From a virus (taxonomy: Duplodnaviria; Caudoviricetes): a stretch of DNA of 27,786 nt. The first letter of the stretch is position 1; every line of letters starts with the position of its first letter. The DNA is taken from positions 1 through 27,786 of IMG/VR virus record IMGVR_UViG_3300005512_000263; one strand, written 5' to 3'. Of the stretch, positions 1,250 through 17,185 are shown piece after piece. The position numbers were made by a program, and so were the translations under genes. The notes under the pieces are model-generated. The model made no database searches. It was given only the letters and a program-made list of their open reading frames with translations, and was not told the origin of the DNA.

Positions 1250-1255
1250 AACACA

Positions 1256-1282
1256 GCCCGGTTCGCCGGGGCAAAAGGAGAT
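1256..1282 (+). repeat. UUCG hairpin + RBS intergenic motif, copy 2
   Basis: GCCCGG-TTCG-CCGGGGC-AAAAGGAGAT. Confidence 0.8.
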
Positions 1283-1288
1283 AAAATA

Positions 1289-1591
1289 ATGAAAAAACTT
1301 TGTGATAGATGCGGTTCCGCATCGAATGGAATGATTGGAATTGGGGCAGCAAGGCTTTGTCGTGTTTGTGATGTCGAAATACGACCAGACATTGAAGCAC
1401 TCAGAAACGCAGGAAAGCCTGTAAATGTGTTACAAATAGCAAGGAAACACTTCAAAGAAAACTTTGCTGGCGGCACATATCCCTTGCGGGATATCCCTGC
1501 TGATCTTGAGCATAAATGGAAAGAACGCGCACTGAAAGATAATTGCAATCAACGAGACGTTTTATTGGCTGCCCTTGTCGAATATTTGTAA
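1289..1591 (+). CDS. Zinc-finger plus C-terminal ribbon-helix-helix DNA-binding protein
   Basis: CDRC...CRVC, then YPLRDIPADLEHKWKERA...NQRDVLLAALVEYL, an RHH pattern. Confidence 0.6.
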   Translation: MKKLCDRCGSASNGMIGIGAARLCRVCDVEIRPDIEALRNAGKPVNVLQIARKHFKENFAGGTYPLRDIPADLEHKWKERALKDNCNQRDVLLAALVEYL

Positions 1592-1708: not shown

Positions 1709-1766
1709 GTTTAACGCTTAAATAACCGGCGCGGCTTTTTGCGTCCGGTTGATTGGTTGGTTATAT
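1709..1766 (-). mobile_element. Canonical integron attC site (58 bp) closing the left MTase cassette
   Basis: Minus strand ATATAAC-CAACCAAT-[C]-AACCGG-[A]-CGC-loop-GCG-CCGGTT-ATTTAAGC-GTTAAAC; AAC/GTTRRRY cores and two extrahelical bases at attC positions. Confidence 0.85.
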
Positions 1767-2482
1767 TGCGCACCTTCGATTCTCTGTTTTGCGATTTCAA
1801 AATACTTTTCGTCAAGTTCAATGCCAATGAAATCACGGTTTAAGTTTTTACAGGCAACACCTGTTGTTCCTGAACCCATGCAGTTATCAAGAACGGTATC
1901 GCCTTTATTGGTATAGGTTTTGATTAGGTATTCGATTAAGGCTACGGGTTTTTGGGTTGGGTGCAGCTTGCCTTTCTGTACGCTAGTGTTAAATCGTTGT
2001 ATTGTTGTTGGATATTTTCCTTCCAATTTTCTTGTTTTACCGTCATGAGAGGTCATAGAGGACGAACCGCTTAAAGATGCTTTTTTTCTTGTATAAATTC
2101 TGGGTTTGTCTCTTGGTGTCATTCGTGGGTAATATTTTGTTTTCCCTTTGCCAAAAACGCATATATCTTCATGATTGCCCATCGGTCTGAATTTGGCGTA
2201 ACCGTGCCCCACTGGCAGCGATTTTTCAAAAACCCATTGATACTTAAAAAACTTTCTGTTGCTCATAACTAAAGTAGATGTAAACGGCTGACTTGCAAAT
2301 AAAACAATAGCAGCATTGTCCTTACATATTCGCTTGTAATGGTGCCAAAGCATATCAAGGGGTAATACGGTATCCCACTTGCAGGCCGTTGTCCCGTACG
2401 GCATGTCACAACAAACCATATCCACGCTACGGTCTGGAATATCGAACATCTCCTTCAAGCAATCGCCGTGTATCAGTTTCAT
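1718..2482 (-). CDS. DNA amino-methyltransferase (N6A/N4C, beta class), gene cassette
   Basis: DMPY catalytic motif, HPTQKP, VLDNCMGSGTTG SAM motif, FIGIELD; C-terminal tail reads through the attC. Confidence 0.95.
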   Translation of the reverse strand: MKLIHGDCLKEMFDIPDRSVDMVCCDMPYGTTACKWDTVLPLDMLWHHYKRICKDNAAIVLFASQPFTSTLVMSNRKFFKYQWVFEKSLPVGHGYAKFRPMGNHEDICVFGKGKTKYYPRMTPRDKPRIYTRKKASLSGSSSMTSHDGKTRKLEGKYPTTIQRFNTSVQKGKLHPTQKPVALIEYLIKTYTNKGDTVLDNCMGSGTTGVACKNLNRDFIGIELDEKYFEIAKQRIEGAQYNQPINRTQKAAPVI

Positions 2483-2509
2483 TTTACCTCGTATCCCGTT
2501 TAGCGATAT

Positions 2510-2570
2510 AATAAGTGATTATACAGACCTGGAAAGCACTCATTTTGTAATGTTATCCAGGCAGGTTTAT
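2510..2570 (-). mobile_element. attI-like cassette insertion platform (left)
   Basis: ATAAACCTGCCTGGATAACAT-N18-CAGGTCTGTATAATCACTTA|TT; same layout as 15154-15214; the sequence after the junction (TTATATCGC) nearly complements the cassette's R'' (GCAATATAAC). Confidence 0.7.
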
Positions 2571-2585
2571 ACATAATAAAGTTGA

Positions 2586-2783
2586 TCACACGCCCATCAA
2601 AAGCCATAAGACAAGCCCTATGAAGGATGCGTACACGATCCCGACGACAAATCCGTTGATGAATCCAAGGTCGTATTCAATTCTCATTTCAAAATCCCCC
2701 ACTCCAGGCACAGTTTCAGGTACATTGTGATATATCCATATTCCGTTGTTGCTGCCTGGCACTGCCACATAATCCAGTACCAC
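2586..2783 (-). CDS. Small hypothetical membrane protein
   Basis: C-terminal hydrophobic helix; same strand as the operon; start uncertain. Confidence 0.45.
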   Translation of the reverse strand: MVLDYVAVPGSNNGIWIYHNVPETVPGVGDFEMRIEYDLGFINGFVVGIVYASFIGLVLWLLMGV

Positions 2784-2805
2784 AACATTCTATTTTTTCC
2801 CTGTT

Positions 2806-3096
2806 TCATTTTTTGTATCCCCTCGGTATCCACTCTCTCAGGTCATAGCCATACCAGCAGCAATCCGCGCACACGACCTCAGTCAGGACCACATTTTCTG
2901 AAAGGTTCGGCCTGGTTCTTATCCGTCGCATTGGTCCGCCACACTCAGTACATTTGCGCCATGGTTTTGACCGGGAGAAGTGAGAATATCCATGGGTGAC
3001 GCATTCCACCGGGTTAAAACAAAGCTCTGTTCTCAGCTTTGCACATTCTCCGCATGATTTTTTTTGTGGGAACGCATCAGATCCGGACATAATCAC
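2806..3096 (-). CDS. Cys-rich hypothetical protein (several CxxC)
   Basis: CGEC, CTEC, CADC motifs. Confidence 0.55.
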   Translation of the reverse strand: MIMSGSDAFPQKKSCGECAKLRTELCFNPVECVTHGYSHFSRSKPWRKCTECGGPMRRIRTRPNLSENVVLTEVVCADCCWYGYDLREWIPRGYKK

Positions 3097-3259
3097 GCCA
3101 ACCTTCCGGCAAGGAGTTCAAGTTCCCATAAAATTTGTTCAGAGACAACCTCCTTTTTCTTTTTTGTTTTCCGTGCAAGCTCATGTGTTCAGACAAAGAC
3201 ATAATTTTTTCGGTCATTCTTTTGACTGTTTCCCTGGCTGTTTTTTGCATGTTTCAACC

Positions 3260-3545
3260 TCTATTTTTTTATTTTTTTGTACGTACACAACCCCCTTAAT
3301 ACACACACCCCAGAAAAAGAGATAAAATAAGGGAAGTTGTGTTAGGGTTGTATATTCGTACGTAGTATATAATAGATATATATATATATTAGTGTTTATA
3401 GTGTTCTTCGTATTTTTTAACACGTACAAAAATAAGTACGGATTGGTACAAAAAAAACAATGTTCTTTTTGTGATTGTATTGTTTTTAAAAAAAATCCGT
3501 ACGAGTTCGTACTAATTTTGAACGTGTTTTTGAACGTGTTCTTGT
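3260..3545. other. Putative phage replication origin
   Basis: Very AT-rich intergenic region downstream of primase; TA run, clustered GTAC/CGTAC motifs, direct repeat TTTTGAACGTGTT x2. Confidence 0.45.
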
Positions 3546-5681
3546 TCATAAATTTGTTTTCTTTGGGAGATGATATTGAGTCGATCTTTCACCCTCTTTT
3601 GTGATAATCTCACCACGTTTTTTTAAAACACCAATTACAGATTCAGAGTGTTTTTGTGGCCAATTTTTTAATTGAGTTTTCCGGGTAGCCATATATGCAA
3701 AAGTTGGGGTTCGCCCTGCGCGAATAGCCATTTTAATGGCTGCCTTAAATGTCTCACAATCCCGATGAAAATCACCAGATACAATTTTGTCTGATAACAC
3801 GTTTGACTTCCATCCACCGAGCATTTCCGCTATTAAAATCCCATATTGAATATCTTTACCTGTTATTTTAGATAATAACTTTTTAGCCTTGTTGGTTGCT
3901 GCGTGATGGATCAGGGCGTATTTAAGACACAGATCAAACCGCCTGGAAATAAACCCTGTTAATCCGTCCGATTGCGCCTTGTTAGCCTCTGTTGTAATAT
4001 AATCGCTGTATTCCTTGATGTATATTAATGCCTTGTCATCCACCTGTAATTCAACGCATCCTTTTATAAGCTCCGCAAGGGTTGACTCTGGCGGCACAAA
4101 CTGTATTCTTTGTCTCAACTCATTTACAAACTTTTTTGTTTTTGGATAATAAGAGCTATTGATTAACAGCGGTTTCGGTTTAATTTCGCCGTCATAAACC
4201 CAAAAATCAAACCTCTGCATTAACCCTGTTTCAAAATCTTTTAGTTGGATTGCGTCGAAAATGACAGGAGTTGCATTGCCGATCAGAGAAAAACATGGGT
4301 TATGGATATCTATAGAATTTTTTGAATCACCGAAACCTTTTTTAAAACTTTCACCGGACCTGGAGAACACATCAAGCAGGGCTGCGCTTTTGCTTTCAGC
4401 CACCATATCAACCCCACCTTTGTTATTGTTTCTCTGGAAAAGACTTGTCACTTCATCGAAGAATCCCATTCCTTGTGGATTTTCTGAAATTGCTCTCCAT
4501 AGACCCGCGCCACTGGCTATATCGTTAAGGCTGATAAAATTCTCGATATCAAGGCATCTTAAAAACTTTCTATCCGTTGCTGTTTTGCCGGTACTGGTCC
4601 CGCCTACCTTAATATTAAAAACATTGGGATACACTCCGTTCAGGCTTGTTTTACCGGCGATTGACCTTGATATGACTGTTAATACCAATGGTAAACTGTA
4701 TTGCAGGATATCACCTTCCAAGGCTTCAAGACCCTGTGATATTAACCCTTCTACGATAGCTCCATTGGGTATCTGTGTTGAAAAATCCTCGAACATACAA
4801 TCTTCAATAGACATAACTTCAATGGTTTCAAGCTGTGATATTTCATGCCTGACTGCATTTAACCCGATTTCAACAGCCATATCGTTAAAGTCTGAACCGT
4901 TTATTCCGGTAGGCCAGACACAAGACAATCCAAGCTCAAAGGCTACTTTCTTGCCTGTTTCGATCCCTACGTTCTTTTCTTTTTTATGGTCGTTATCGGC
5001 ACATATGATTATCTTGCTGTTCTTGAACTTTTCTATTGCAGATTTAGCCACCTTTTCTATGTTGCCAGCGTTCATTGCGCATAATGTTTTGAATCCGGTA
5101 GCTAAATTAATACTGACACCAGTAGCGAACCCTTCACAAATACAAATAATGCTATCATCACCCTTGATTGGATAGCAGCATCCACCAACGACACCACCCG
5201 TCATAAACTGCTTTCTTCCGTTATTGTTTATCGTTTGATAACTATTGATAACTCCGCATGGGTTATATAAAGGTATGACAATCAGGTTGTTAATTCTAAG
5301 CGTTTTATATTTGCTGATTTGTTTTTTTTGTAAATATGGATGATGTTCTACGCTTTCAATAGCCTTTGATATAAATTTTAGTGCCCTTTCCTGTCCTGAT
5401 TTTTCCCTTTCCTCGAACTCTTTTATTCTGGCATATTCAAGTGCTTCCCACATTTTATGGTTTGTTGTCCCGGTCCCGTTTAGCGTTGAACACCGACCCT
5501 GTTCACCACGGACCCAACACCCGTAATTACAATAATATTGCCCGTTAAATTCTTTAATTGCATACCAACCGTCTTTGTTTTTTTTTGGTTTTGCCGCACT
5601 GCTGCATCTATGAATATTCCCATCGATGATAAAATTGTCAGATAGTCCAAAACTATTTAACGTATTAATAATTTCTTGCAT
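3546..5681 (-). CDS. TOPRIM primase fused to a DUF3987/P-loop helicase-like domain
   Basis: ICEGFATG, ICADND, DFND TOPRIM motifs; GGTSTGKT Walker A and FFDE Walker B. Confidence 0.9.
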   Translation of the reverse strand: MQEIINTLNSFGLSDNFIIDGNIHRCSSAAKPKKNKDGWYAIKEFNGQYYCNYGCWVRGEQGRCSTLNGTGTTNHKMWEALEYARIKEFEEREKSGQERALKFISKAIESVEHHPYLQKKQISKYKTLRINNLIVIPLYNPCGVINSYQTINNNGRKQFMTGGVVGGCCYPIKGDDSIICICEGFATGVSINLATGFKTLCAMNAGNIEKVAKSAIEKFKNSKIIICADNDHKKEKNVGIETGKKVAFELGLSCVWPTGINGSDFNDMAVEIGLNAVRHEISQLETIEVMSIEDCMFEDFSTQIPNGAIVEGLISQGLEALEGDILQYSLPLVLTVISRSIAGKTSLNGVYPNVFNIKVGGTSTGKTATDRKFLRCLDIENFISLNDIASGAGLWRAISENPQGMGFFDEVTSLFQRNNNKGGVDMVAESKSAALLDVFSRSGESFKKGFGDSKNSIDIHNPCFSLIGNATPVIFDAIQLKDFETGLMQRFDFWVYDGEIKPKPLLINSSYYPKTKKFVNELRQRIQFVPPESTLAELIKGCVELQVDDKALIYIKEYSDYITTEANKAQSDGLTGFISRRFDLCLKYALIHHAATNKAKKLLSKITGKDIQYGILIAEMLGGWKSNVLSDKIVSGDFHRDCETFKAAIKMAIRAGRTPTFAYMATRKTQLKNWPQKHSESVIGVLKKRGEIITKEGERSTQYHLPKKTNL

Positions 5682-5692
5682 GGGTATCCTTT

Positions 5693-7375
5693 TTAAAATG
5701 GGATCTCATCGTCATAGCTCATTGCAAATTCAATTTCGGCGTCTTCAGCGACGACCTCTTGGATTTCAGGGTATCTACCATTAATATCTACAAGTATATT
5801 TGTAGGATTTTTAAAATTTGATTCCATGAACTCATCAACTGACATCGGGAACGGATCGTTGGATATTGTCTCCCATGTTTTGCGTGCTTTTTGCACCGCA
5901 AATCCTGAATAATTATCAGGGAAACATAACCAAAGGAAAACTTGTCCAGGTTTATATGCAGTCTCCTGATATATATATGTTATTTTCCCGAGTTCTTTAC
6001 CGCTTTTTTTACTTGTATGTACCTCGATATTCCAATCTATTACCGCATATATGACAGGATCTGCCGGAACGATTGCGCTGAATTCTACATTTTTCATTTT
6101 CGGCAATGCTTCAGCAACGATACATTCTTTTTCTGGCCATTCAAAGCCGCACTCGGAACATTCCCTCAATGCAATATGGACCTCAGATTCACAATTTGGG
6201 CAAATCTTCAACATCCCACGTTCTTTTTCAATCGTTTTTTCAACTGATTTGGGTATTGTGATTTTAACATTATCCAGGTCTGTCCCGAACCTGGAAGTAT
6301 TATCTGTCAAATCAAGTAAAAACCCGTGGTCTTTCCCCTCATATGTTCGCAAAACCCTTCCGACGGCCTGAAGGTATAAAGCCGCTGACAATGTGGGTCG
6401 ACAAAATACAATCGCCTGTAACCTGGGAAGATCGTACCCTTCTAAAAGGATTTCAACAGAAACCATTATCCTTTTTTGCCCGGATTCCCACACCATCATA
6501 TTTGATTGGCGGTCTAAATCATTAAGTTGACTATGGACAATTGTTGAATCATGCAGCATTGAGTGAAGTTTTTCGGCATGGTCGATATTTACACAGACGA
6601 TACAGATACAGTCGTAGCCCTGACAATAACTATCAATAGCCTCTATACAGGTGTTCAAATGGATTTCACGGGTGACTATTTCTCCAAGCTGATCAATTAC
6701 ATAGTCTCCATTAACAGATACCCCGGCTAGGTCTTTTTCTAAAGATTCATGGGCAGCGACAACGCCTTTCAATGGTACAAGGTGACCCTCTTGTCTAAGT
6801 TCCTCATATGTGATTTTGTGATTACAGACAGGGAAAAGGTTTTGTGCGCCTTTTTTGATCTTGTTTCCATAGCAATATCCAAGACCAAGCCGGAATGGTG
6901 TTGCCGTTATACCTAATATCCGGCTGTTCGGACGTTGTAGCCGTAAATATTCAATGACCTGTTTGTATTGAGTGTTACCGGTGACATCTATCCTATGGCA
7001 CTCATCTATAATGATAAGCCCTGCGCCTGTCGTATATTGTTCCTTCATGTTAGAGAAGGTTTGAATAGATGCAATTGTAATTTGTCTGTCCAAACGCTTA
7101 TTTTGCAATCCTGCACAACAAACGCCGATATGACGGAAATGTATGTCTGTGAATTGTTGAAAAGCATTTTTGAATTGTGAGATCAGTTCTCTTTTGTGGG
7201 CAAGGATTAAAAAATTCATTCCAGGGTTTTCATTTTTAAGCCGTTGAATTAACCTGACGGACATAAATGTTTTTCCGGAACCCATGATGCCTGATAATAA
7301 AACATCCTGCATTATCTGAAGGTCTGAATATATTTTATCCAGGGCTTTCGTCTGATATGGCCGGGCTTCTATCAT
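5693..7375 (-). CDS. SF2 DEAD/DEAH helicase with Zn ribbon (RadD/YejH-like phage helicase)
   Basis: RPYQ, GSGKT, DECH, TAT, QAVGRVLR; CPNC...CSEC; acidic DDEIPF tail. Confidence 0.93.
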   Translation of the reverse strand: MIEARPYQTKALDKIYSDLQIMQDVLLSGIMGSGKTFMSVRLIQRLKNENPGMNFLILAHKRELISQFKNAFQQFTDIHFRHIGVCCAGLQNKRLDRQITIASIQTFSNMKEQYTTGAGLIIIDECHRIDVTGNTQYKQVIEYLRLQRPNSRILGITATPFRLGLGYCYGNKIKKGAQNLFPVCNHKITYEELRQEGHLVPLKGVVAAHESLEKDLAGVSVNGDYVIDQLGEIVTREIHLNTCIEAIDSYCQGYDCICIVCVNIDHAEKLHSMLHDSTIVHSQLNDLDRQSNMMVWESGQKRIMVSVEILLEGYDLPRLQAIVFCRPTLSAALYLQAVGRVLRTYEGKDHGFLLDLTDNTSRFGTDLDNVKITIPKSVEKTIEKERGMLKICPNCESEVHIALRECSECGFEWPEKECIVAEALPKMKNVEFSAIVPADPVIYAVIDWNIEVHTSKKSGKELGKITYIYQETAYKPGQVFLWLCFPDNYSGFAVQKARKTWETISNDPFPMSVDEFMESNFKNPTNILVDINGRYPEIQEVVAEDAEIEFAMSYDDEIPF

Positions 7376-7686
7376 AACGGCAATATTTCCTTAACGTCTG
7401 ATATACTCCTGACAACATGGTAACTTCCACCGGCTGCCCTTATCTCCTGCTCTGCTTTTTTTTGATTTTGAGATTGCCGGCCTGTTTTTGTTTTTACCTC
7501 AAGTCCAATGAATTGCCCCATGTAAGAAACCACAATATCCGGGAGCCCAGGGCGACCGGTTTTAAAAAAACGGCCTTGTTGGGTTTTAACCGCACCAGCT
7601 CCGGCCCGGAAATAATAGACAGGTTTAGACCTGGAAAGGAGTTCCAGGTAGTCAAGTATCCCTTTTTGAATGACTGATTCTTTCAT
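7372..7686 (-). CDS. VRR-NUC domain nuclease
   Basis: ESVIQ...GLPDI...LEVK...GRQSQNQ. Confidence 0.9.
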   Translation of the reverse strand: MKESVIQKGILDYLELLSRSKPVYYFRAGAGAVKTQQGRFFKTGRPGLPDIVVSYMGQFIGLEVKTKTGRQSQNQKKAEQEIRAAGGSYHVVRSISDVKEILPL

Positions 7687-8399
7687 TTAAAACACTCTCC
7701 GTAAAAATCGCACCATTTGGCTTCCCAATGATCAACCCTTGGACAAGTCCTCTCGGGTATATTTTTTGAAATAGCAACGAAAACATCCTGCAGCCTATCA
7801 ATAATCCAGTCTTTGTTTAGTTTGATGCGTTCCTGGTAAAGTGTTGAATCATTTTTGTTATAGACAAGGACGAAAATATTTTTAAGGTCCATCGCCAAGG
7901 CATAGGCATGGATTTGGAATCTATATTGTTCGTTGTATGACTCATAACCATCTTTTAAGAGTTTTTTAAAACCCTTGTCGTTCATCGTCTTACATTCGAA
8001 AAGATGAGGTTTGCTTGACTCGATCAGCCCATTAACAACCCCGTCAATATGCCCTTTTAATGTGATTCCGTTATAATCAAAAGAAACATTGTGTTGATCT
8101 TGAGTTATGGAAACCCCGGCCTGTGCCAGATCGAACATCATTTGTTTTTCTACAAGATTCCCCATTTGGAATAATCTTAAGATACGTCCATCAATTGGTT
8201 TCCCCTGGTATCCATGATGCTTGTACCAGCAATATCTATGACACTTATGCCCTGCTTGGCTTAATCCCAGGTGGCTACGTTCAGCCCTGTTGGCTTCATA
8301 GGCAAGATCAACCGCCTTGACTGTGCTGGTTTCGTTTATAACTTCTGCGAGATTCGTCATATTTGTCCCATATTTATTGTCTGATATTGCCATCATCAT
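7683..8399 (-). CDS. Cas4-like PD-(D/E)xK phage exonuclease
   Basis: CHR, GHIDG, ECKT, QIHAY and C-terminal C..C..C cluster ligands. Confidence 0.85.
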   Translation of the reverse strand: MMMAISDNKYGTNMTNLAEVINETSTVKAVDLAYEANRAERSHLGLSQAGHKCHRYCWYKHHGYQGKPIDGRILRLFQMGNLVEKQMMFDLAQAGVSITQDQHNVSFDYNGITLKGHIDGVVNGLIESSKPHLFECKTMNDKGFKKLLKDGYESYNEQYRFQIHAYALAMDLKNIFVLVYNKNDSTLYQERIKLNKDWIIDRLQDVFVAISKNIPERTCPRVDHWEAKWCDFYGECFK

Positions 8400-8412
8400 A
8401 ACTCACCACCAA

Positions 8413-8442
8413 TAAAAGATGCCGCCCCGGTTAAAGGGCGGC
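8413..8442 (-). terminator. Hairpin/weak terminator after the SSB gene
   Basis: GCCGCCC/GGGCGGC stem followed on the minus strand by ATCTTTT. Confidence 0.5.
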
Positions 8443-8449
8443 GATAATA

Positions 8450-8941
8450 TTACCAACCGCTTGCGGCTTGCTGCTGTCCCTGTGGTTGCGTCATTTGCTG
8501 CTGAGATGCTGCCGGGATTGCAGTATCTGATGGTTCATATTTTTTGATTTTGTTGCTCTTCAGTTTGTTTCCGGTGTTGTTGGAGGTGAATTCTTCCACC
8601 TGGACCGTGACAACCATCGGTTTTCCCATCAATCCGTTGGTATTCTGGGGCGGATACGGAACCTGGCATAGATTGCAGATCCGCTTTAACGTCCCCTGTC
8701 CAATCGCCTGGCACTGTGCAGACGGGTTTGTTATATTAATATTGTCAGTCAGTATTTCAGATGCGTACTGACCTTCGACGACCTGAAGTTTAATTCCAAG
8801 GATTTTCCCGGTATTGTTCTTGTTATCCTTGAGCTCATCGGACACGATACAGGCACGGTATTTGCCAGCAGGGAGGACAGTGAACCCACCGTCCGATTCT
8901 TTAACATTTGGATCTAAGTTTACGCCTGTGAAATCAGTCAT
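8450..8941 (-). CDS. DUF669-family phage single-stranded DNA-binding protein
   Basis: LPAGKY...OB-fold pattern...NKIKKY, Q-rich tail ending in W; adjacent to Sak4. Confidence 0.85.
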   Translation of the reverse strand: MTDFTGVNLDPNVKESDGGFTVLPAGKYRACIVSDELKDNKNNTGKILGIKLQVVEGQYASEILTDNINITNPSAQCQAIGQGTLKRICNLCQVPYPPQNTNGLMGKPMVVTVQVEEFTSNNTGNKLKSNKIKKYEPSDTAIPAASQQQMTQPQGQQQAASGW

Positions 8942-9109
8942 TATGCCACCTCTTTAATTTTAGTTGTTGGTTTTTTATAAAATCGTCTTTGCCTTCTGTT
9001 GTTTGCCTGTTCATCATCTGTTGCCCAACGGCAATTTTCAGGTGAATATGGCCCTGAGTTGTCAACCCTGTCTATGGAATGACGTGGTGATGGTTTCGGC
9101 CCTTGGCAT
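8941..9109 (-). pseudogene. Internally deleted HNH homing endonuclease remnant
   Basis: Translates [37 protein letters not shown]...*; the coupled ATG at 9109 is out of frame. Confidence 0.8.
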
Positions 9110-9858
9110 TATGCTGCCTCCCGTTTTATGTTCCCACCTTTAATCGCTGTCATGAGTGTGGAAAAATCCAATGGAATCTCGTCTGGAATCTGATATCTTG
9201 ATTTTGCCCGCCATGCTGGACGATTGGATGAATAAAGGACCCTTTCTCCGGAGCCAACCGCCTTGTATTTCTGAGTGGCCTTGTCCTTGGTCACAACGGT
9301 GCGGAAATTGGCAAACAAAACAGCGTCTGCCCACTCTTCAATGGCCGTGGCTGCATGACGGTGCAGCTTTATCTGATACCGATCATAAGGATCATTATCA
9401 GGAGGGTTAAATGTCTTGATTTCATTGTGCGCCAAAAGAATAATGGCAATGCCTTTTTCCCGGATCTTGTTTAGACCGTTCAAAAACTTTTCCCAATGTT
9501 TCATGGCAAAGATATAGGCTTTTCCGTATCCTATATCCTCTGGTGTTTCGACACCCTTTTCTTGACAGACCTTAGAAAATATCAACTTTTCCAACCAGTC
9601 TATGGTGTCAACGACAAATGTTTTATATTGGTGGTCCTGCTCAATAATTGCGCCCATATACTGCCAGACTTCATCCAATGACTTTGCAAGCGGGAAGTGG
9701 TCAACCTCAATATTGGTCAACCCATCTTCTGTGATAAGAAAAATAGGCTCAGGTGCATTGCTGGCAAAATAAGATTTGCCAACACCATGGATGCCGTGTA
9801 CAACAATCCTGGGAGGTCTTGATTCTTCTTTTGATTTAATCAAAGATTTAAGATCCAT
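9109..9858 (-). CDS. Sak4-like AAA_24 ATPase (phage single-strand annealing recombinase)
   Basis: HGIHGVGKS Walker A, VVDTIDW Walker B, GYGKAY, EWADAVLF, AKSR. Confidence 0.9.
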   Translation of the reverse strand: MDLKSLIKSKEESRPPRIVVHGIHGVGKSYFASNAPEPIFLITEDGLTNIEVDHFPLAKSLDEVWQYMGAIIEQDHQYKTFVVDTIDWLEKLIFSKVCQEKGVETPEDIGYGKAYIFAMKHWEKFLNGLNKIREKGIAIILLAHNEIKTFNPPDNDPYDRYQIKLHRHAATAIEEWADAVLFANFRTVVTKDKATQKYKAVGSGERVLYSSNRPAWRAKSRYQIPDEIPLDFSTLMTAIKGGNIKREAA

Positions 9859-9860
9859 GA

Positions 9861-10217
9861 TCACACCCCCTCTATTTTTAACGATGGTTTCCCAGGCTTG
9901 GTGGTGATACACTTTGCGACCAATGCCGGATCTATCCTTTCAATCATTCTGAGATTTTTCAAATTGATTGACGGTTTAAAATCAACGAAACTCATATTCT
10001 CCGGCAACTGCAAATCCTGATAGGCACCGATGTCCAGGTTACGATTGAGCTTCGTTGTGACGGAAATTTTAAATCCATCTACAGCCTTGGTTTCGGTCCC
10101 TTCAATTTTTGTCGGTCCAATGGCTTTGATTAGTGCCGCCTCTGCTGTAAGGCGGGTTTCCTTTGCCGCTTTTTCTCTTGCTTTGGCCATAATGACCGCT
10201 TGACACAAGTCTTTCAT
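9861..10217 (-). CDS. Conserved phage protein of the Sak4 recombination module
   Basis: AGGAG RBS; N-terminal helix and C-terminal TTKPGKPSLKI. Confidence 0.75.
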   Translation of the reverse strand: MKDLCQAVIMAKAREKAAKETRLTAEAALIKAIGPTKIEGTETKAVDGFKISVTTKLNRNLDIGAYQDLQLPENMSFVDFKPSINLKNLRMIERIDPALVAKCITTKPGKPSLKIEGV

Positions 10218-10284
10218 CTCATGACTCCTTATATTAGATGCAGCCGGACCATTTCCGGCTGGGTATAAACAATATTTTAATTGT

Positions 10285-10524
10285 TCATGCTGCTCCTTTT
10301 GATTTTTCCAGGCAAAAAACGATCTCATTTTCTATCCGGCCCCGGTATTCATTTAAAATGGTGATATACAAGTCGTCGCTAATATCACCGTCGTTTATTT
10401 TGATGTCTGATATTTCTATTTCAGGCCGGAACCCGGGTTGTGTCCGTGTGCGGATCTGTCCCGGGTTGAGAACCACATATTTAACCGTCATTTCCGGGTG
10501 ACAGAATGATTCATGGATAGGCAT
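10285..10524 (-). CDS. Hypothetical protein
   Basis: AGGAGGT RBS; tight packing with neighbours. Confidence 0.65.
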   Translation of the reverse strand: MPIHESFCHPEMTVKYVVLNPGQIRTRTQPGFRPEIEISDIKINDGDISDDLYITILNEYRGRIENEIVFCLEKSKGAA

Positions 10525-10526
10525 AC

Positions 10527-10691
10527 TTACCTCCTGTGAATGTTTACTATCGAAAGCATTGCCGCACTGAACAGCATCACGCCTCCGGTTGATGCCAATA
10601 CCTGAACCAGCAGGTTATCCGCTTCTGAACCTGCCAGGATAAGCCCGGTCAATGACAGGGTAGCAAGTATTGTTGTCCAGATTTTTTTCAT
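10527..10691 (-). CDS. Small two-TM membrane protein
   Basis: MKKIWTTILATLSLTGLILAG...; AAGGAGG RBS. Confidence 0.7.
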   Translation of the reverse strand: MKKIWTTILATLSLTGLILAGSEADNLLVQVLASTGGVMLFSAAMLSIVNIHRR

Positions 10692-10704
10692 TTTTCCTCC
10701 TTTT

Positions 10705-10737
10705 GGGCTTGGAACCCCCTCATAGACTTCCAAGCCC
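10705..10737 (-). promoter_or_regulatory. Leader hairpin, putative antisense-RNA target
   Basis: Perfect 10-bp stem GGGCTTGGAA/TTCCAAGCCC directly 5' of the RBS; 25/27 identity with 14375-14401. Confidence 0.65.
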
Positions 10738-10772
10738 GTTGTTAATGTTGGTATTACCGCTCTTGCCTATGT

Positions 10773-11387
10773 TTATGCCGCTTCAATCTGTTTTAGCCCC
10801 TCAACGGCATCTAAAATATTTTTGTTTCCAGCCAGATAAGCACCAAGCAATCTGGTTAACGGTTCAGATGGTTCAGGAAGTTTGTTGCTTGCAATCATGG
10901 GCAACAATGTAGAAAACCCATCAATAAGACCATCAACAATATCCTGTCTGCTTAATTCCGGGTTTCTTTTTGCATATGAATTGACAACCTTTATTGCGTT
11001 TCCAAGACCATTTTTAACAACGATCATAACCCCGCATTTCGCCATTAATTCAGGAACGTAAATACTGGATGATTTTGATTTGTATTTCCATACGGTTGTG
11101 AATGCGACATAGTTAGACAGGGCACTGTGTAAAATAGATTCCCCCTGTGTATGTACCTCTGGATTATTGTCAAGCCAAAAGTCGCTAAGGTCACTAACAA
11201 AGGTTTCCATTTCAACAAAATTTCTTGGTTTCTCAACGCTTTCCGAATTACAAAATCGCTTGATTGCTCCATTGATTTTCGCAGCCGTGTACGGTGTTGC
11301 GTCAAGAAACTGTTTCGCATCCGCATAGTTCAGGACTCCCTGATACTTGCGTTCTAATTTTTTCTCTTGAGTTGCATCTACTCTCAT
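10773..11387 (-). CDS. Hypothetical protein
   Basis: 204-aa ORF with AAGGA RBS. Confidence 0.7.
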   Translation of the reverse strand: MRVDATQEKKLERKYQGVLNYADAKQFLDATPYTAAKINGAIKRFCNSESVEKPRNFVEMETFVSDLSDFWLDNNPEVHTQGESILHSALSNYVAFTTVWKYKSKSSSIYVPELMAKCGVMIVVKNGLGNAIKVVNSYAKRNPELSRQDIVDGLIDGFSTLLPMIASNKLPEPSEPLTRLLGAYLAGNKNILDAVEGLKQIEAA

Positions 11388-11400
11388 GTTATTATTTCCT

Positions 11401-12543
11401 TTAGACATTAATGATTGCATCCTGTGACCCGGTTAATTGCTCTAATTGCCGGGTTGCTTTTTGGATAACCTGCTGAACCGTCTGGATTGATTTTTCCATT
11501 CCCCCGCCAAGTTCCTCCATTTCTTTGCCAAGGGTGCCTATATCAATCAGAAAGTCCTTGCCGGATCTTTCCAAAGTTTTCATCATTGAATTGTCAATAT
11601 TTGTTGGGTTGTCCACTTCAAGCTGAGATTTCAGCCGGTCGATTTCAGTTTCCATCTCACGGTATTTAGACCAAGAGGCTGAGGCTTTATCTAACGCCTC
11701 TTTTTGTTTGAGTTCTGCTTTCTTTTTCTCGTCTTCAAGTTTTTCGATTTGGTCTTTAAATCTTTTCTCGTGAAGTTCAGAAGCGGTCTTTTCTGCAACT
11801 TTCCTGTCTTCAAACCTTTGCCGGTCAAATTCATCTTTCAGCTTCTTAATTTCAAATTCTTTGTCAGCTAAAATCTTTGCCGTGTCCGACTGTGCGACTG
11901 CATCCAGTTTTTGCTTAACCTCATCCCGCTCTTTTGATATTTTGTTCAGGTCTTCTAAGGCCATTAGTTTTTCATCAAGCGCAGCTTGTTTTGCTTTGTT
12001 CGCATATTGACTGCTTTCAAACAGGTTTAAATAAAGCCTCTGTGATTCTTCATCCAGGACGGACAGGCGGTTTGCCATGCCTATTGTAATGGACGCACCC
12101 TTGTATTTTTTTAATAACTGCGGTATCAGGTTGTTGACATCCGGGGTCTTGCCCGATTCAAGTTCTTTGATGCGCTTGTGGGCGGCTATTAATTCTTTGG
12201 ATTGTTTGACGGTTAATGATTTTTCTTGTTCGGCTGCCTCTCTGGCTGATTCCGGAGTGGATGGCCGGGAAAGTTCAATAAGGACTTGGCTTGAAAAGCG
12301 TAGTTGACTACGCTTTTGACCGTAATGTTGAGCAATGTTCATATAATTTTGACATTGCCGTTCTTTCAATCCGGTTTCCCGCTCGATCAACGGGATAAAC
12401 TCACCATGAGGGGTGTTATCTTTGATGCTGATCAGAATCTTGCCTATATTGATACCGGATTCAACGTGAGTTTCAAGTTCTCGTTTTAACCTGTTCAAGT
12501 CGCTTTCTATCGGGCTGTAATCGTTGGTTTCCATTATATCCAT
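11401..12543 (-). CDS. DUF3102-like N-terminal domain plus long coiled coil
   Basis: IGKILISIKDNTPHGEF...ERQCQNYMNIA. Confidence 0.75.
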   Translation of the reverse strand: MDIMETNDYSPIESDLNRLKRELETHVESGINIGKILISIKDNTPHGEFIPLIERETGLKERQCQNYMNIAQHYGQKRSQLRFSSQVLIELSRPSTPESAREAAEQEKSLTVKQSKELIAAHKRIKELESGKTPDVNNLIPQLLKKYKGASITIGMANRLSVLDEESQRLYLNLFESSQYANKAKQAALDEKLMALEDLNKISKERDEVKQKLDAVAQSDTAKILADKEFEIKKLKDEFDRQRFEDRKVAEKTASELHEKRFKDQIEKLEDEKKKAELKQKEALDKASASWSKYREMETEIDRLKSQLEVDNPTNIDNSMMKTLERSGKDFLIDIGTLGKEMEELGGGMEKSIQTVQQVIQKATRQLEQLTGSQDAIINV

Positions 12544-12560
12544 TGTTTACCTTTACCCTT

Positions 12561-12770
12561 TTAATCCCTGCTGCTAAGATAGATTTCAGGGTTGAACTCG
12601 TTTTCGTGGATCTGTCTTGCCATTACAAAAAGGATTGATTGTTTTAATTTGGCTTTTTGAGGAGGGGAAAGTTTGTCCAGCTTAACCTTTAAAATCTCAG
12701 GGATTTTAACCGTCCAGCTCTCATTGCATTTATCTATTTCAATCCCGGTCATCAAGTCAGCTTCCAGCAT
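12561..12770 (-). CDS. Small putative regulator at the CII-like position
   Basis: Directly downstream of cro; WTVKIPEILKVKLDKL is RHH-like. Confidence 0.5.
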   Translation of the reverse strand: MLEADLMTGIEIDKCNESWTVKIPEILKVKLDKLSPPQKAKLKQSILFVMARQIHENEFNPEIYLSSRD

Positions 12771-13013
12771 TTACGCTGCTCCTTGTTGTTCTGATTTGAA
12801 TTTTAATTGTTCATACAGGTTATTTAATTCTTGTGTTGATGCGTTCTTCCATCCAAGGATGTCTTTGCCTGGGAATAGTTTTGAAAGCTCAACTGCGAGT
12901 GGAAAACTTACCTTGTCGGTGCCAGAAAGCAGCCTGCTAACGCCTGGTTGGTCAAGACAGGTGAACATTGCCGCAAAGTCTTTTTGTGTGAATTTTTTGT
13001 TTCTCTGTTTCAT
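12771..13013 (-). CDS. Cro-like XRE HTH repressor
   Basis: TQKDFA...DQPGVSRLLSG...LAVELSK; divergent from the CI-like gene. Confidence 0.8.
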   Translation of the reverse strand: MKQRNKKFTQKDFAAMFTCLDQPGVSRLLSGTDKVSFPLAVELSKLFPGKDILGWKNASTQELNNLYEQLKFKSEQQGAA

Positions 13014-13020
13014 AATGGCT

Positions 13021-13095
13021 TCATATTATACTCATATTATGAATGTGTCAACACAAAATATGAAAAAAAATCATTTATTGTTTTTTATTATGAAA
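13021..13095. promoter_or_regulatory. Lysis/lysogeny switch: leftward promoter and operators
   Basis: Minus strand TTGACA (13051-13046)...TATAATAT; palindrome TCATATTATGA (13032-13042) with degenerate copies nearby. Confidence 0.6.
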
Positions 13096-13160
13096 TATTA
13101 ATAAAATAGGATGGTTATAAGATGTTGATGCCGAATAAAAATTGTTTTAATGTCCATTAT

Positions 13161-13688
13161 ATGGAAGACACGGTAAAAATATTTCTTGCTGGTTTTAAAA
13201 AATGGGCCAAGTTGCACAGAATAACCCAAAAGAATATCTGTTCTGTCGTGTCAAAAGATCAAACCACCATTTCAAACTACTTCAACTTTAAAACAAGACC
13301 AGAACCTGAAATGGTACAAAAATGGATAGACCATTACAATTTAGATGAAAATGAGATCATCCAAACCGGCAGAAAAGAACTCCAGCCCGACATATTACCA
13401 GAGGACCGGATAAACGAGATTGTTGACAAGCGTATTGCAAAAATGAACAGACCTGAGAATAATGTAATTGATATGGGAGATCCGGTTAAGTTGGAATTGT
13501 ATAAAATAATCAACGATTTTCCTAACAAGCTCCAGGGGTTAGAGCTTAACCGCCTGGCCGTCCAGCTTGCTAAGGTGGACCCGGAGGCATTGAAAGACAT
13601 TATAGAACTGATTGATTTTAAATTGGGTAAATCACGGAAGGAGCTTGGCCAGTCTCCCGTATTAAAAAAGGACGTACGGGGAGCCTGA
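13161..13688 (+). CDS. CI-like XRE HTH repressor lacking an S24 peptidase domain
   Basis: ITQKNIC...DQTTISNYFNFKTRP HTH; helical C-terminus; start could be 13122. Confidence 0.75.
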   Translation: MEDTVKIFLAGFKKWAKLHRITQKNICSVVSKDQTTISNYFNFKTRPEPEMVQKWIDHYNLDENEIIQTGRKELQPDILPEDRINEIVDKRIAKMNRPENNVIDMGDPVKLELYKIINDFPNKLQGLELNRLAVQLAKVDPEALKDIIELIDFKLGKSRKELGQSPVLKKDVRGA

Positions 13689-13762
13689 TTTCCCTTAACC
13701 TCGATTACAACATCCACTTTATCAGCCGTGACCTGATTTTTAAAAGCACGACACAGCGCAAA

Positions 13763-14068
13763 ATGATATCCTGCAACGTGGATGATATCATAGGCAAGCA
13801 CATGTCAGAGTTTTTGGAGCCGGAAGAATACGAACGTGAATCAAAAATAATTAATCAGTGCTTTATTACAGGCCAGTCCGTGTGGTATCCTTATAGAATC
13901 TGCGGAGTTAATTTCATGGTCCTTGCGGACAAGATCAGCAACGACCTGGTTGCCCTGCACGAGTGCTGGCACGATATGGCCAGGACGGAAGAGATCAAAC
14001 GGATGTTGTGGGCAGCGTCCGGGAATTTTTACCGGCAGTATCACAGCAAAAAACAGGAAACAGGGTAA
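13763..14068 (+). CDS. PAS-fold-like small protein (frame open upstream to about 13631)
   Basis: DDIIGKHMSEFLEPEEYERE...CFITGQ resembles the PAS core; upstream in-frame LNLDYNIHFIS resembles the first PAS strands. Confidence 0.55.
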   Translation: MISCNVDDIIGKHMSEFLEPEEYERESKIINQCFITGQSVWYPYRICGVNFMVLADKISNDLVALHECWHDMARTEEIKRMLWAASGNFYRQYHSKKQETG

Positions 14069-14082
14069 AAAAGGAAGGCATT

Positions 14083-14337
14083 ATGGACACAAAAGACGCA
14101 TTGTTTCAGCAGGACACGGACAACATGATTACAATCATGGTTTATCTGGCCTGCATCATGCCTGTTTATTACGGGTTCAAAAAAAGCCCCCTGCACGGGC
14201 TCATAAATTCGGGCGCGGTCGGCGCGGTCCTGTACTGTTACTTTACGTTCCCGGTCGCCCAGACTATCATTGCCGTTTTGTTCATCGTCTACATCCTGGT
14301 CGGGGTTATCGGCAGCGCAATAAAAAATGTTTTTTAG
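14083..14337 (+). CDS. Small three-TM membrane protein (possible superinfection exclusion)
   Basis: Hydrophobic segments, AAGGAAGG RBS, located in the repressor operon. Confidence 0.55.
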   Translation: MDTKDALFQQDTDNMITIMVYLACIMPVYYGFKKSPLHGLINSGAVGAVLYCYFTFPVAQTIIAVLFIVYILVGVIGSAIKNVF

Positions 14338-14338
14338 C

Positions 14339-14367
14339 TTGACAAACAATTAAAACTTCCTGATAAT
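14339..14367 (+). promoter_or_regulatory. Strong sigma70-type promoter for the rightward accessory/cassette operon
   Basis: TTGACA (14339-14344), 17 bp, GATAAT (14362-14367). Confidence 0.75.
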
Positions 14368-14373
14368 CATCAT

Positions 14374-14416
14374 CGGAACCCCCTCATAGGCTTCTAAGCC
14401 CTCCAAAGCGGAGGGC
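14374..14416 (+). ncRNA. Candidate trans-acting antisense RNA / leader RNA
   Basis: Starts at the predicted +1; 27 nt complementary (two G:U pairs) to the minus-strand mRNA at 10711-10737; 3' hairpin GCCCTCC/GGAGGGC. Confidence 0.55.
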
Positions 14417-14607
14417 AGCATGACACAAAAATCTGTATTAAAAAATGAACCGGGAAAGAACCGTAATGGATCTTCACCGGTTTTCTGCGTTTTACCGACA
14501 ATACCTGCAGCATACCCGGCAAGCATCTATCAAAAACCGTTCCGTTATTCTACAAAACGGGCGGTCCACCTGTATGAAATCAATAACAGCGTCATGGGGA
14601 TTGCCAG

Positions 14608-15030
14608 ATGATGGACAATCAATACCGGAAGTTGTCTGAATTGGCGTTGATCAGATCCATACCCGATATGACCATCGGCACATTGAAACCCTCCCGTAAA
14701 AAGGGACTGTTCCTGCGCATGCAAAAGGCGGTTGACAAGGATATCAGGGACCTGCCCAAGCCGTCAGATGACGACCTGTCCAAGATATGGGAGACCATTG
14801 AAGAGTTCGGCAGGCAAACCGGTTGGCTGAACCAGACCAGGCACATAGGGACCCTGTTTTCGTTTTGCCTTGAGATTATCGAGCGGTCAGAGTTTGAGTT
14901 TAATCCGGATATTGTCAGTATTATAAATGATATTATCAACCACCTGGAAGACGGTAAAGATTTTCTATATCAAAGCTGTTGGGCCGGTGGGCTTGCTGCA
15001 AAGAAATGGGAGGGATTGTTTGATGAATAA
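14608..15030 (+). CDS. Hypothetical helical protein
   Basis: 140-aa ORF overlapping the next gene. Confidence 0.7.
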   Translation: MMDNQYRKLSELALIRSIPDMTIGTLKPSRKKGLFLRMQKAVDKDIRDLPKPSDDDLSKIWETIEEFGRQTGWLNQTRHIGTLFSFCLEIIERSEFEFNPDIVSIINDIINHLEDGKDFLYQSCWAGGLAAKKWEGLFDE

Positions 15031-15157
15031 GGAAGAATTGATCAAAGAGATCGAAAGAAAGATTGAAGATGAGAAAGCCCTGTCAGGCGAATATTACACA
15101 GGCCGGGTGGCGGCGTTTTTATATGTGTTGAGCTTGTTGGAAGACGATGCAGAATAA
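15023..15157 (+). CDS. Small hypothetical protein
   Basis: MNKEELIKEIERKIEDEK...; overlaps the upstream stop; its stop abuts the attI-like site. Confidence 0.6.
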   Translation: MNKEELIKEIERKIEDEKALSGEYYTGRVAAFLYVLSLLEDDAE

Positions 15158-15214
15158 ACCTGCCTGGATAACATGCGGATTTGAAAGATACACAGGTCTG
15201 GATAACTACTTATT
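15154..15214 (+). mobile_element. attI-like cassette insertion platform (right)
   Basis: ATAAACCTGCCTGGATAACAT-N18-CAGGTCTGGATAACTACTTA|TT; L box GGATAAC, 5 bp, ATT core. Confidence 0.7.
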
Positions 15215-15292
15215 GGCTTAGACACCCTTCGGGAGCGTCGCCAATAATTGGCTACTACGGCCGAGCCGCAGAGCAGGTCAAAGGGAAAAGGA

Positions 15293-16060
15293 ATGATTGA
15301 AATATTAAATAAAGATTGCAGAGAGTATCTGTTCGTTTGTGAACCGAACTCAGTTGATTTGACAGTAACTTCACCACCTTATGATAATCTTAGAGCCTAT
15401 AATAAAACATCTACTTGGGGATGGCCTGAATTTTCTGCTATCGCCGCTGGATTGTGGCGAGTAACGAAACCCGGTGGTGTTGTGGTTTGGGTTGTTGCGG
15501 ATTCTACGATTAAAGGAAGCGAGTCAGGAAGCAGTTTTGAACAAGCATTGTTTTTTAAAAAATGTGGTTTCAATCTACATGATACTATGATTTATGCGAA
15601 AAATAGCTACATGCCACTTACACACAACAGGTATGAGCAAGCATTTGAATACACATTTGTTTTCAGTAAGGGCAAACCAACATATTTTTACCCAAAAATG
15701 GTTGATTGTGTAACAGCAGGAACCAAACGGAATAGAGGTGGAAGTAAAGCAAAAGAACTAACGTATGCGGAAAGGTGTAGGGAAGAACGAACGGTTGTGA
15801 GACCTAAAAAACAAGCCCCAAATATTTTCTATTATGATGTAGGGAAAAATGAAAAAACAATCCATAATGCCGTGTTCCCAGAAAAATTAGCCCACGACCA
15901 TATATCCACATGGAGCGACAAGCCTTGTGTGGTTTTTGATCCATTTATGGGATCTGGAACAACAGGCGTGGCGGCAAAACAATTAAATCGTGATTTTATC
16001 GGGATTGAGATTGACCCTGAGTATTTTGAGATAGCAAAGCATAGGATCAAAGCGGCATAA
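15293..16060 (+). CDS. DNA methyltransferase (N4C/N6A beta class), cassette 1
   Basis: TSPPY, HNAVFP, FDPFMGSGTTG, FIGIEID. Confidence 0.95.
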   Translation: MIEILNKDCREYLFVCEPNSVDLTVTSPPYDNLRAYNKTSTWGWPEFSAIAAGLWRVTKPGGVVVWVVADSTIKGSESGSSFEQALFFKKCGFNLHDTMIYAKNSYMPLTHNRYEQAFEYTFVFSKGKPTYFYPKMVDCVTAGTKRNRGGSKAKELTYAERCREERTVVRPKKQAPNIFYYDVGKNEKTIHNAVFPEKLAHDHISTWSDKPCVVFDPFMGSGTTGVAAKQLNRDFIGIEIDPEYFEIAKHRIKAA

Positions 16061-16108
16061 CGCCAATAAAATAATACACCGGACGAGCCGGTGATCATTA
16101 CATTAGGG
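16061..16108 (+). mobile_element. attC-like site 1 (AAT/ATT core, 48 bp)
   Basis: CGCCAAT-N8-[A]-CACCGG-[A]-CGAG-CCGGTG-N8-ATTAGGG. Confidence 0.75.
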
Positions 16109-16114
16109 GGACAC

Positions 16115-16378
16115 ATGACAAAAATAGAAACTATACTGCACGAAAAGGTTAAAAAGCGCAATTTTCAAGGAACTGGGTGGAGATATTTAGATTTACCCAC
16201 AAAGATTCACCTACGTGCCATGTGCGAGATAATTCAAGATATCATAACCGAACAGCCCCCTAATACTCAAATCCACGTGGATGAAGACTTTTGCGACTGT
16301 GACCCAGATGAACGAAAAATAATGATAGAAGCGGGGCTTTCTTTTTGCCACTGGTGCGGGAAAAGTCTTCACCAGTGA
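16115..16378 (+). CDS. Cassette 2 hypothetical protein with a Cys-rich tail encoded in the attC loop
   Basis: GGGGG RBS; C-terminal CDC...CHWC. Confidence 0.65.
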   Translation: MTKIETILHEKVKKRNFQGTGWRYLDLPTKIHLRAMCEIIQDIITEQPPNTQIHVDEDFCDCDPDERKIMIEAGLSFCHWCGKSLHQ

Positions 16379-16393
16379 TCCCCGACATTAGGG
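16258..16393 (+). mobile_element. attC-like site 2 (136 bp)
   Basis: CCCTAAT-N8-[C]-CAC[G]TGG-[A]-TGAAGACTTTT...AAAAGTCTTCA-CCAGTG-N9-ATTAGGG. Confidence 0.8.
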
Positions 16394-16412
16394 CGACTGA
16401 AAGGAACTAACA

Positions 16413-16610
16413 ATGACAGAAAAAGAAAAGAAGGCTTTAGATTTTATCTTTGAATGGGGTGGATATGATGGTGGTCATCATAAGCAATGGGCACTTGATC
16501 AGGTCGTCAGAATTTTAAGTGAGGATGAATACCATAAATGGGTTGCTAAATATGAAGACGGTGAAGATGGCCCGAAAACATATGAATGGGATGAAGGGAT
16601 TGCGCCCTAA
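16413..16610 (+). CDS. Cassette 3 small acidic phage protein
   Basis: GGYDGGHHKQWALDQVVRIL...WDEGIAP; stop codon lies inside R''. Confidence 0.8.
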   Translation: MTEKEKKALDFIFEWGGYDGGHHKQWALDQVVRILSEDEYHKWVAKYEDGEDGPKTYEWDEGIAP

Positions 16611-16664
16611 TTATGTTAATCGACCGGACAATGAAAAGACTTGCCGGTCATACCGGCATTATTT
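16605..16664 (+). mobile_element. attC-like site 3
   Basis: CCCTAAT-N9-[C]-GACCGG-[A]-CAA...TTG-CCGGTC-N8-ATTATTT. Confidence 0.8.
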
Positions 16665-16678
16665 TTTTGGAGGTAAAA

Positions 16679-16906
16679 ATGAAAACCATGAAGGCTAAGT
16701 ATCAAAATGATCCACAGTATAAACAAACTGTCGATATTATGGAACACCTTATACGTGAGAACCAATTCACTCCGTCTGAAATACGTGAAATGGCAGTTTT
16801 AGCTTGTATTAATTATGAAATGTCAAGGCCCAATCCGCCTTCATTTGTGTTAACTCCTGAGGTTGAATCTTCTTTAAAAACTTTGCAAAAGTTGAGGGAA
16901 AAATAA
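16679..16906 (+). CDS. Cassette 4 hypothetical protein
   Basis: GGAGGT RBS; KYQNDPQYKQTVD...TPSEIREMA; stop inside R''. Confidence 0.75.
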   Translation: MKTMKAKYQNDPQYKQTVDIMEHLIRENQFTPSEIREMAVLACINYEMSRPNPPSFVLTPEVESSLKTLQKLREK

Positions 16907-16958: not shown

Positions 16959-16973
16959 TTTTAGGAGGTAAAA

Positions 16974-17166: not shown

Positions 17167-17185
17167 GCATGGAGGCATAACTAAA

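Follow-up and report, generated by a model that had tools for sequence, protein, structure and literature searches.

The 27,786-nt window analysed here is the whole of IMG/VR record IMGVR_UViG_3300005512_000263, a linear phage contig that is 57% complete, and it carries two matching sequences in opposite orientation (2570-2510 on the minus strand and 15154-15214 on the plus strand), each standing ahead of a DNA methyltransferase gene. The question is what these repeats are: do they regulate the genes behind them, do they bound an invertible segment, or are they recombination platforms of the attI kind, as an earlier note on this DNA had proposed? The sequence comparisons described below point with good confidence to compact attI docking sites that have no integrase gene beside them, that head gene cassettes and that would be worked in trans by a long-form integron integrase (IntI) of the host.

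The two copies agree at 46 of 61 positions, distributed as 21 of 21, then 6 of 18 in a central spacer, then 19 of 22 up to the cassette junction. They form the second-longest inverted repeat of the window, and the chance expectation for exact 21-mer inverted pairs is ~1e-4. Both copies display the geometry of an attI simple site that had been claimed for them, namely an L box (GTATAAT at 2524-2518 on the left, GGATAAC at 15200-15206 on the right), a 5-bp spacer (CACTT and TACTT, respectively) and an A|TT core, with crossover predicted between 2512 and 2511 on the left and between 15212 and 15213 on the right. The second, upstream box that had also been noticed is present in both as CTGGATAACA (box1; 2560-2551 and 15164-15173). 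The 18-bp spacer had been described as unrelated between copies, which holds only for the comparison of these two with each other; across the 14 members of the family described below it is partly conserved and holds a third, TGATATCCAG-like box (box2) that is inverted relative to the upstream one. Left and right copies each retain a different part of this spacer, with box2 at 15187-15195 on the right and in degenerate form at 2537-2529 on the left. The platform shows no self-folding (z −1.9 to +0.8), as expected of attI, and with its L box, spacer, R core and place at the head of an array it has the features of an attI simple site. Each copy points in the direction of the genes around it, on its side of a divergent cro-like/cI-like switch (12771-13688), with a leftward replication operon on one side and a rightward operon on the other, such that there is one copy per divergent transcript, as had been proposed; the arrays are oppositely oriented because these two operons are divergent. 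Since 9 bp upstream of box1 are common to the window's two copies only, a duplication within this phage is the likely origin of the second copy.

What do the platforms head? The right platform is followed by six attC-bounded units of 195-890 bp, all on the plus strand and all with AAT/ATT attC cores, and then by a seventh unit (17356-17547, plus strand) that has a cassette-like start and a 59-aa open reading frame (ORF) and in which no attC was found. Cassette R1 (15213-16102) carries an SPPY-type DNA methyltransferase gene (15293-16060) and an attC at 16061-16108 (fold z −5.5, score 36.4); R2 (16103-16387) an 87-aa ORF (16115-16378) that reads through a long attC (16258-16393); R3 (16388-16658) a 65-aa ORF (phrog_23179; attC 16605-16664); R4 (16659-16952) a 75-aa ORF (attC 16901-16958); R5 (16953-17160) a 46-aa hydrophobic ORF (16974-17114; attC 17109-17166); and R6 (17161-17355) a 53-aa ORF whose attC (17302-17361) falls below the scorer threshold and folds weakly (z −1.1), its R'' matching its own cassette start over 9 nt. 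The left platform is followed by one cassette (1715-2511, minus strand) and then by a terminator-like hairpin found on both strands (1654-1683). This left cassette carries a DMPY-type DNA methyltransferase gene (2482-1718) and a canonical G-type attC (1709-1766, minus strand; fold z −3.2, score 34.9) whose AAC...GTT core is mismatched to the A|TT platform and whose R'', leaving the core base aside, matches its own start over 6 nt.

The attCs show the R''/L''/L'/R' hairpin, the extrahelical base and the complementarity to their own cassette start that characterize such sites. R'' agrees with the start of its own cassette at 6-7 of 7 positions in all seven cassettes, with runs of 9-10 in five, while agreement with the start of the next cassette is 3-7 of 7 among the six right cassettes; own-start complementarity of this kind is the mark of a former circular unit. 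An attC scorer that had been trained on host G-type attCs only and that ignores the core base reports 6 attCs for the 27.8-kb window. All are inside the two arrays, and the scorer so recognizes 6 of the 7 cassette attCs; two rule-based attC finders were dropped as too noisy. [quoted passage not shown] The inner arms of the R1 attC define a family that was matched 282 times, in 115 of the 161 host-family genomes, and 8 times in controls, some of the matches being coding-region chance, and R1 thereby shares the family of the common host attC. Moreover, the R6 attC is 84% identical over 81 nt to an attC in locus L083, where different genes are carried. A PADLOC search of the six small cassette ORFs returned nothing. 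R1 begins with a short ATTGGC...GCCAAT hairpin, after which a second ATTGGCT appears (15212-15246), and host cassettes L085, L090 and L222 also start with a hairpin closing in AAT. At 16258-16393 and 17302-17361, as well as in the phage L094 described below, ORFs run through the attC, the long attC loops encoding Cys-rich peptide ends.

The statement that each platform first heads a DNA methyltransferase, and that the two are of different subtypes, was confirmed: both first genes are PF01555 methyltransferases, 30% identical to each other, with DMPY (left) and SPPY (right) motifs, and neither has a neighbouring nuclease. An SPPY motif suggests N4-cytosine methylation and DPPY-like motifs N6-adenine methylation. 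Neither protein had a match at E 1e-50 in the 161 family genomes; a homolog of the right one, 65% identical, occurs in a phage without an attC. The right methyltransferase lies in a matched and plausibly mobile cassette, for which swappable anti-restriction methylation is a plausible role, and the left cassette is predicted to be poorly mobile because its G-type attC sits in an A-type attI. Five methyltransferase cassettes in phages have already been described (PMC9892861).

Does the platform occur elsewhere? A sequence of ~50 bp recurs in 5 other phages or phage-like contigs and at 7 chromosomal sites in Desulfobacterota. The former comprise a Mu-like prophage in which Mor-like and endolysin-like genes flank the platform (L084/L096), a complete 41-kb phage (CheckV 100%) with platform and array (L094), a phage head fragment (L095), the head region of a lambda-like prophage (L107) and a 6-kb contig that is only phage-like (L106). 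The chromosomal platforms (L091, L097, L099, L100, L101, L229 and L230) lie far from any intI, none being present in the flanks fetched, and each heads one or more cassettes. Alignment of the 14 sites yields box1 (CTGGATAWCA), ~13 bp, reversed box2 (TGATATCCAG), 2 bp, the L box (CTGKATAAY), NACTT and RTT, and column conservation drops immediately after the TT of the core. All four boxes and their spacing are retained in the Mu-like, lambda-like and other phages. The bipartite pattern matched 3 viral contigs, 5 of 401 genomes at the order level and 2 of 401 at the phylum level, with 0 control matches in both 401-genome searches, and the simple-site pattern gave 12 matches in 7 of the 161 family genomes versus 2 control matches. 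A strict pattern had 0 matches in genome_contigs and in metagenomes met only 3 contigs of the window phage. Other searches were set aside: a loose bipartite pattern (17 matches in viral contigs, all chance), an A-only proximal pattern (5 matches, of which 2 were known and 3 chance), an attC loop pattern (5 viral matches, none useful) and locus L087, dropped as chance. Five loci from phages related by primase or integrase were also considered, and no platform was seen in the three read by eye; another primase-related phage (L020) has G-type attC-like sites on both strands.

The earlier note recorded the ATT core and passed over its likely consequence. The crossover base is A in both window platforms and in 6 of the 7 attCs, none of which has the G|TT triplet. 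In the right array, R'' has the matching T in each of the six attCs, a double change (AAT plus ATT) that spans different attC subtypes and lengths. Of 6 phage elements, 4 have an A core; among chromosomal orphans the figure is 1 of 7 and among intI-linked sites 1 of 23 (Fisher p=0.003), and three other unrelated elements repeat the combination of A core and A-type attC. Matched attCs in 18 host arrays (156 kb) number 37 G-type and 0 A-type, and in a partly overlapping 799-kb set 35 and 0, the scorer in both sets not counting the uncompensated pairs AAC/ATT and AAT/GTT; one AAT/ATT call in L300 was dropped as chance, being inside a 406-codon ORF. For IntI1, Frumerie et al. (PMC2811028) report that the first base must be identical in both partners, a mismatch costing 10^3-10^4-fold and activity recovering when both carry the changed base. 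If this rule is valid for the long IntI clade, A-type phage docks and cassettes would therefore form a largely separate pool, and by the same rule the A-keyed core would likely hold phage cassettes largely apart from the host's own. The lambda-like prophage carries an FRG-domain candidate defence gene (PDC-S15; L107:9970-10836) at its G-type platform, adjoining the portal gene, a single case that fits the A/G separation.

Which enzyme could work these sites? No protein in the window exceeds the TIGR02249 (IntI) cut-off, the contig being 57% complete, and the tyrosine integrase that it encodes (18229-19281, plus strand) is a phage integrase and not IntI (29.9 bits versus a cut-off of 265). The complete L094 phage has no PF00589 match and no tyrosine recombinase, and therefore the enzyme there must come from outside. 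Host intI loci suggest a source. Upstream sequence could be scored at 115 of 123 loci (8 were without a usable match or enough upstream DNA), and in one clade of long IntIs the proximal half of the platform scores at least 5 upstream of 11 of the 28 members, versus 0 of 87 others. The best match to the distal palindrome falls 5-25 bp before the gene in 16 of 28 clade members versus 3 of 87 others (p ~1e-9), a comparison in which position alone was used, score thresholds being inseparable from shuffles (24/59 versus 28/59). A 59-sequence tree recovers this clade, first defined by at least 48% identity to a single member, as monophyletic (support 1.0) and places two further members inside it; the long forms are extended at the N terminus by ~130-150 aa, and L241 shows a second SAM-like match. 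In L241 the palindrome precedes the start codon by 19 bp, with a simple site ~100 bp further on. L241 agrees with the simple site of the left platform at 14 of 17 positions and with the distal half of that platform at 20 of 32 by hand count, and the same genome also carries a Mu-like prophage with an A-type platform. Ten genomes with an orphan platform or related simple site were checked: in 6 of them an IntI above the cut-off is encoded elsewhere, and in the other 4, which are incomplete, none was seen. It had been asked whether the motif precedes attC arrays or adjoins intI. It does head cassettes and attC arrays, but in its compact form it was never found beside intI, and only its halves occur upstream of one IntI clade. 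That match suggests a putative cognate IntI-attI pairing, with the long-form clade as the candidate enzyme. The attI-like identity first suggested for the repeats is supported by the attC arrays downstream, by recurrence in unrelated elements, by conservation that ends at the core and by the match to the attI region of a host IntI clade.

At L241 (1766-1801) and 15 other long-IntI loci, the palindrome consists of two IntI-type boxes between a promoter-like element and the intI start codon, where it may be an autoregulatory site. A LexA box was considered and rejected, the motif being absent upstream of 3 of 3 lexA-like genes, and five other palindrome matches are intragenic.

Taken together, these comparisons suggest a mode of operation in which the host IntI would bind the four boxes (box1 forward, box2 reverse, L and R) and would insert and excise cassettes at the A|TT core during lysogeny or infection. 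The phage operons would then read through the platform and express the cassettes; promoter candidates lie upstream of the right (14339-14367, 11 of 12) and left (2600-2573, 9 of 12) platforms. Under the first-base identity rule, matched AAT/ATT cassettes would be traded mainly among A-type phage platforms. The compact platform itself probably came about when the ~100-bp stretch holding the intI promoter was lost between two box2 repeats. A broader proposal, that unrelated Desulfobacterota phages parasitise the host integron by means of minimal attI docks, a borrowed long IntI and a private A|TT cassette economy, is one that we advance tentatively, judging its chance to be slightly below even.

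How do these sites compare with known systems? Like the class 1 integron (attI1 with L, R, DR1 and DR2, served by IntI1), the platform has an L box, a 5-bp spacer, an R core, a length of ~50-60 bp and two accessory boxes, and its cassettes end in attCs with R''/L''/L'/R', an extrahelical base and own-start complementarity. Unlike that integron, the phage platform has no adjacent intI and an A|TT in place of a G|TT core; its distal box is reversed and forms a palindrome with the second box, whereas attI1 has two direct repeats; and the likely integrase is, unlike IntI1, an IntI of 430-510 aa with an N-terminal extension. With no intI and no GTT, platforms and arrays stand outside the class of complete integrons. 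They resemble the phage integrons and CALINs of Qi et al. 2023 (PMC9892861), in which attC arrays in phages often hold orphan DNA methyltransferase cassettes, and in particular the Shewanella prophage M16-3 of that paper, where an attI heads a CALIN. However, M16-3 is described there as cryptic, with its own intI and verified G|TTRRRY junctions, whereas the present attI family recurs in unrelated phages, one of them complete without a tyrosine recombinase, and has matched AAT/ATT attCs. Cassettes without a nearby integrase, placed by IntI at a distance, are also known from single attC sites lacking integron-integrases (SALINs) and attG insertions (10.1101/2022.09.11.507474). The attG described in that text has a GWT consensus only, whereas the platforms have ~50 bp conserved upstream of the junction in 14 sites, with A as the first base, and so do not belong to the attG/SALIN type. 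The closest parallel to the A core is the set of engineered attI1/attC variants of Frumerie et al. (PMC2811028), in which the same base was altered in both partners; unlike those laboratory mutants, the phage A|TT set looks like a natural population of the variant. In the abstracts and main-text passages that the literature search covered, no report of natural ATT-core integron sites or of such a platform was found.

According to Frumerie et al., the G of GTT is dispensable for the chemistry, all integrons characterised by that time had GTT, and its conservation was proposed to serve cassette exchange between integrons (PMC2811028). A natural, phage-concentrated A|TT set makes this idea directly testable and, if our reading is true, would open an orthogonal channel for integron recombination and break the supposed invariance of GTT. 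By using the host's enzyme with a different key, a phage dock would turn the host integron system to phage use. Chromosomal integrons have been described as stores of anti-phage genes (Darracq et al., 10.1101/2024.07.02.601686), and phages could in this way trade counter-defence genes such as methyltransferases while avoiding the host's G|TT, possibly defence-rich, cassettes. The results also suggest that some CALINs have unrecognised attI heads, and attC finders based on a GTT core may miss A-type arrays.

Several observations weigh against this account. As regards the sites themselves, a strict own-start test (6-nt run) was passed at the plausible first attC in only 4 of the 12 other platforms; the position weight matrices were built from pattern-selected sites, so that self-scores are circular; the phage sample is small and includes the merely phage-like L106; and the compact platform was not directly beside intI at any of the 115 loci scored. 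As regards the cassettes, the first genes at the 12 other platforms (6 assessed with Pfam, the remainder by eye) included no recognised DNA methyltransferase, the arrangement being seen in the window phage only; no identical cassette was found in two arrays; and phage homologs of two cassette genes have no attC of the window's attC family. As regards the core, platform and cassette disagree at the left methyltransferase cassette (G-type, after an A core), at L105 (A-type, after a G core) and at L102 (G-type attC, after an A core); the core is G in the two phage elements L095 and L107 and A at the intI-linked L170; and the first-base rule is known from IntI1 and not from the long clade. Uncompensated AAC/ATT host sites, moreover, number 7 in 5 of 7 loci picked for their ATT end, and in 30 unpicked host loci, 18 attC calls included 1 AAC/ATT and 2 AAT/GTT. 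Such AAC/ATT sites could represent intermediates or decay, and the host attCs whose cores are uncompensated in either way (L325-L329, L307 and L308) are possible bridges between the G and A pools.

The uncompensated host sites and the mismatched pairs at the left site, L105 and L102 would also fit genuine attI sites whose A core is neutral drift, a tolerated G-to-A wobble with no functional separation from host cassettes; A cores might then have spread among phages from one founder. This is a possible reading that we think somewhat doubtful, for all six right-array attCs are doubly changed across subtypes and lengths, A is found with A again in three other unrelated elements, and host arrays contain no matched A-type attC versus 37 G-type ones. 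A second alternative makes the platforms inert relics heading CALINs, with arrays that were brought in by recombination, homologous or illegitimate, and have since ceased to recombine. The lack of intI in the window, the seventh unit without an attC and the sameness of three metagenome contigs of the window phage (99.96-99.99% identical, with the same cassette content where they overlap) would suit it; it is nonetheless unlikely given the four boxes and spacing kept in diverse phages and the pairing of L083 with R6, which share attC and cassette start and carry different genes. Inversion of the intervening segment, offered earlier as speculation, would make the two sites a switch exchanging arrays between the cro-side and cI-side operons. 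IntI1 can indeed invert DNA between inverted attI1 sites, at 72-fold over background and low frequency, but attI x attI recombination is 3-4 orders of magnitude below attC reactions (PMC4792948). No inversion was seen, the three contigs being collinear across the sites; two near-complete other phages have one platform each; and divergent operons already account for the orientation, all of which leaves such a switch very improbable.

Could the repeat instead be an operator or promoter, bound by a phage repressor, LexA or another host regulator ahead of accessory genes? The distal palindrome does sit in an operator-like position just downstream of the promoter-like element of host intI genes, and the left L box contains TATAAT. 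However, the promoter scan found no -35/-10 pair on either L box, the repeat is met in chromosomes as well as in phages whose gene sets are unrelated, the palindrome's other matches are intragenic with none upstream of the lexA-like genes, and conservation stops at the cassette junction, so that we give a purely regulatory role very little credence. Scarcely credible, finally, is a small Xer-type phage recombinase in place of IntI. About 43% of the phage genome is absent from the contig and a recombinase there is possible, which also counts against a borrowed host enzyme, but the complete L094 phage manages without a tyrosine recombinase, and the sites and attCs match host IntI-linked ones. 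Docking sites for a host long-form IntI therefore remain our preferred explanation.

The rest of the contig bears on the likely host. The rightward operon ends in an excisionase-like gene, the integrase and an attP-like core formed by a 5' tRNA piece with a CCG anticodon (19313-19364, plus strand), which points to Desulfobacteraceae/Desulfobacterales hosts; Rfam returned no family above its threshold. A 33-base tRNA piece is matched exactly in 26 genomes, the majority from Desulfobacteraceae or its genera, and therefore the phage likely infects sulfate-reducing bacteria of that family. On either side of the tRNA piece are 36-bp repeats with an inner palindrome (19271-19306 and 19443-19478), which probably serve an intact attP as arm sites for the integrase. 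Intergenic DNA of both divergent operons contains a 27-bp direct repeat (25/27; 10711-10737 and 14375-14401), a candidate operator. At the left end, a repeated GC hairpin with a ribosome-binding leader (888-934 and 1250-1294, plus strand) precedes small genes and was not called an attC by the scorer. The tail region encodes a 566-aa protein with DUF285/BspA-type repeats (21688-23388, minus strand).

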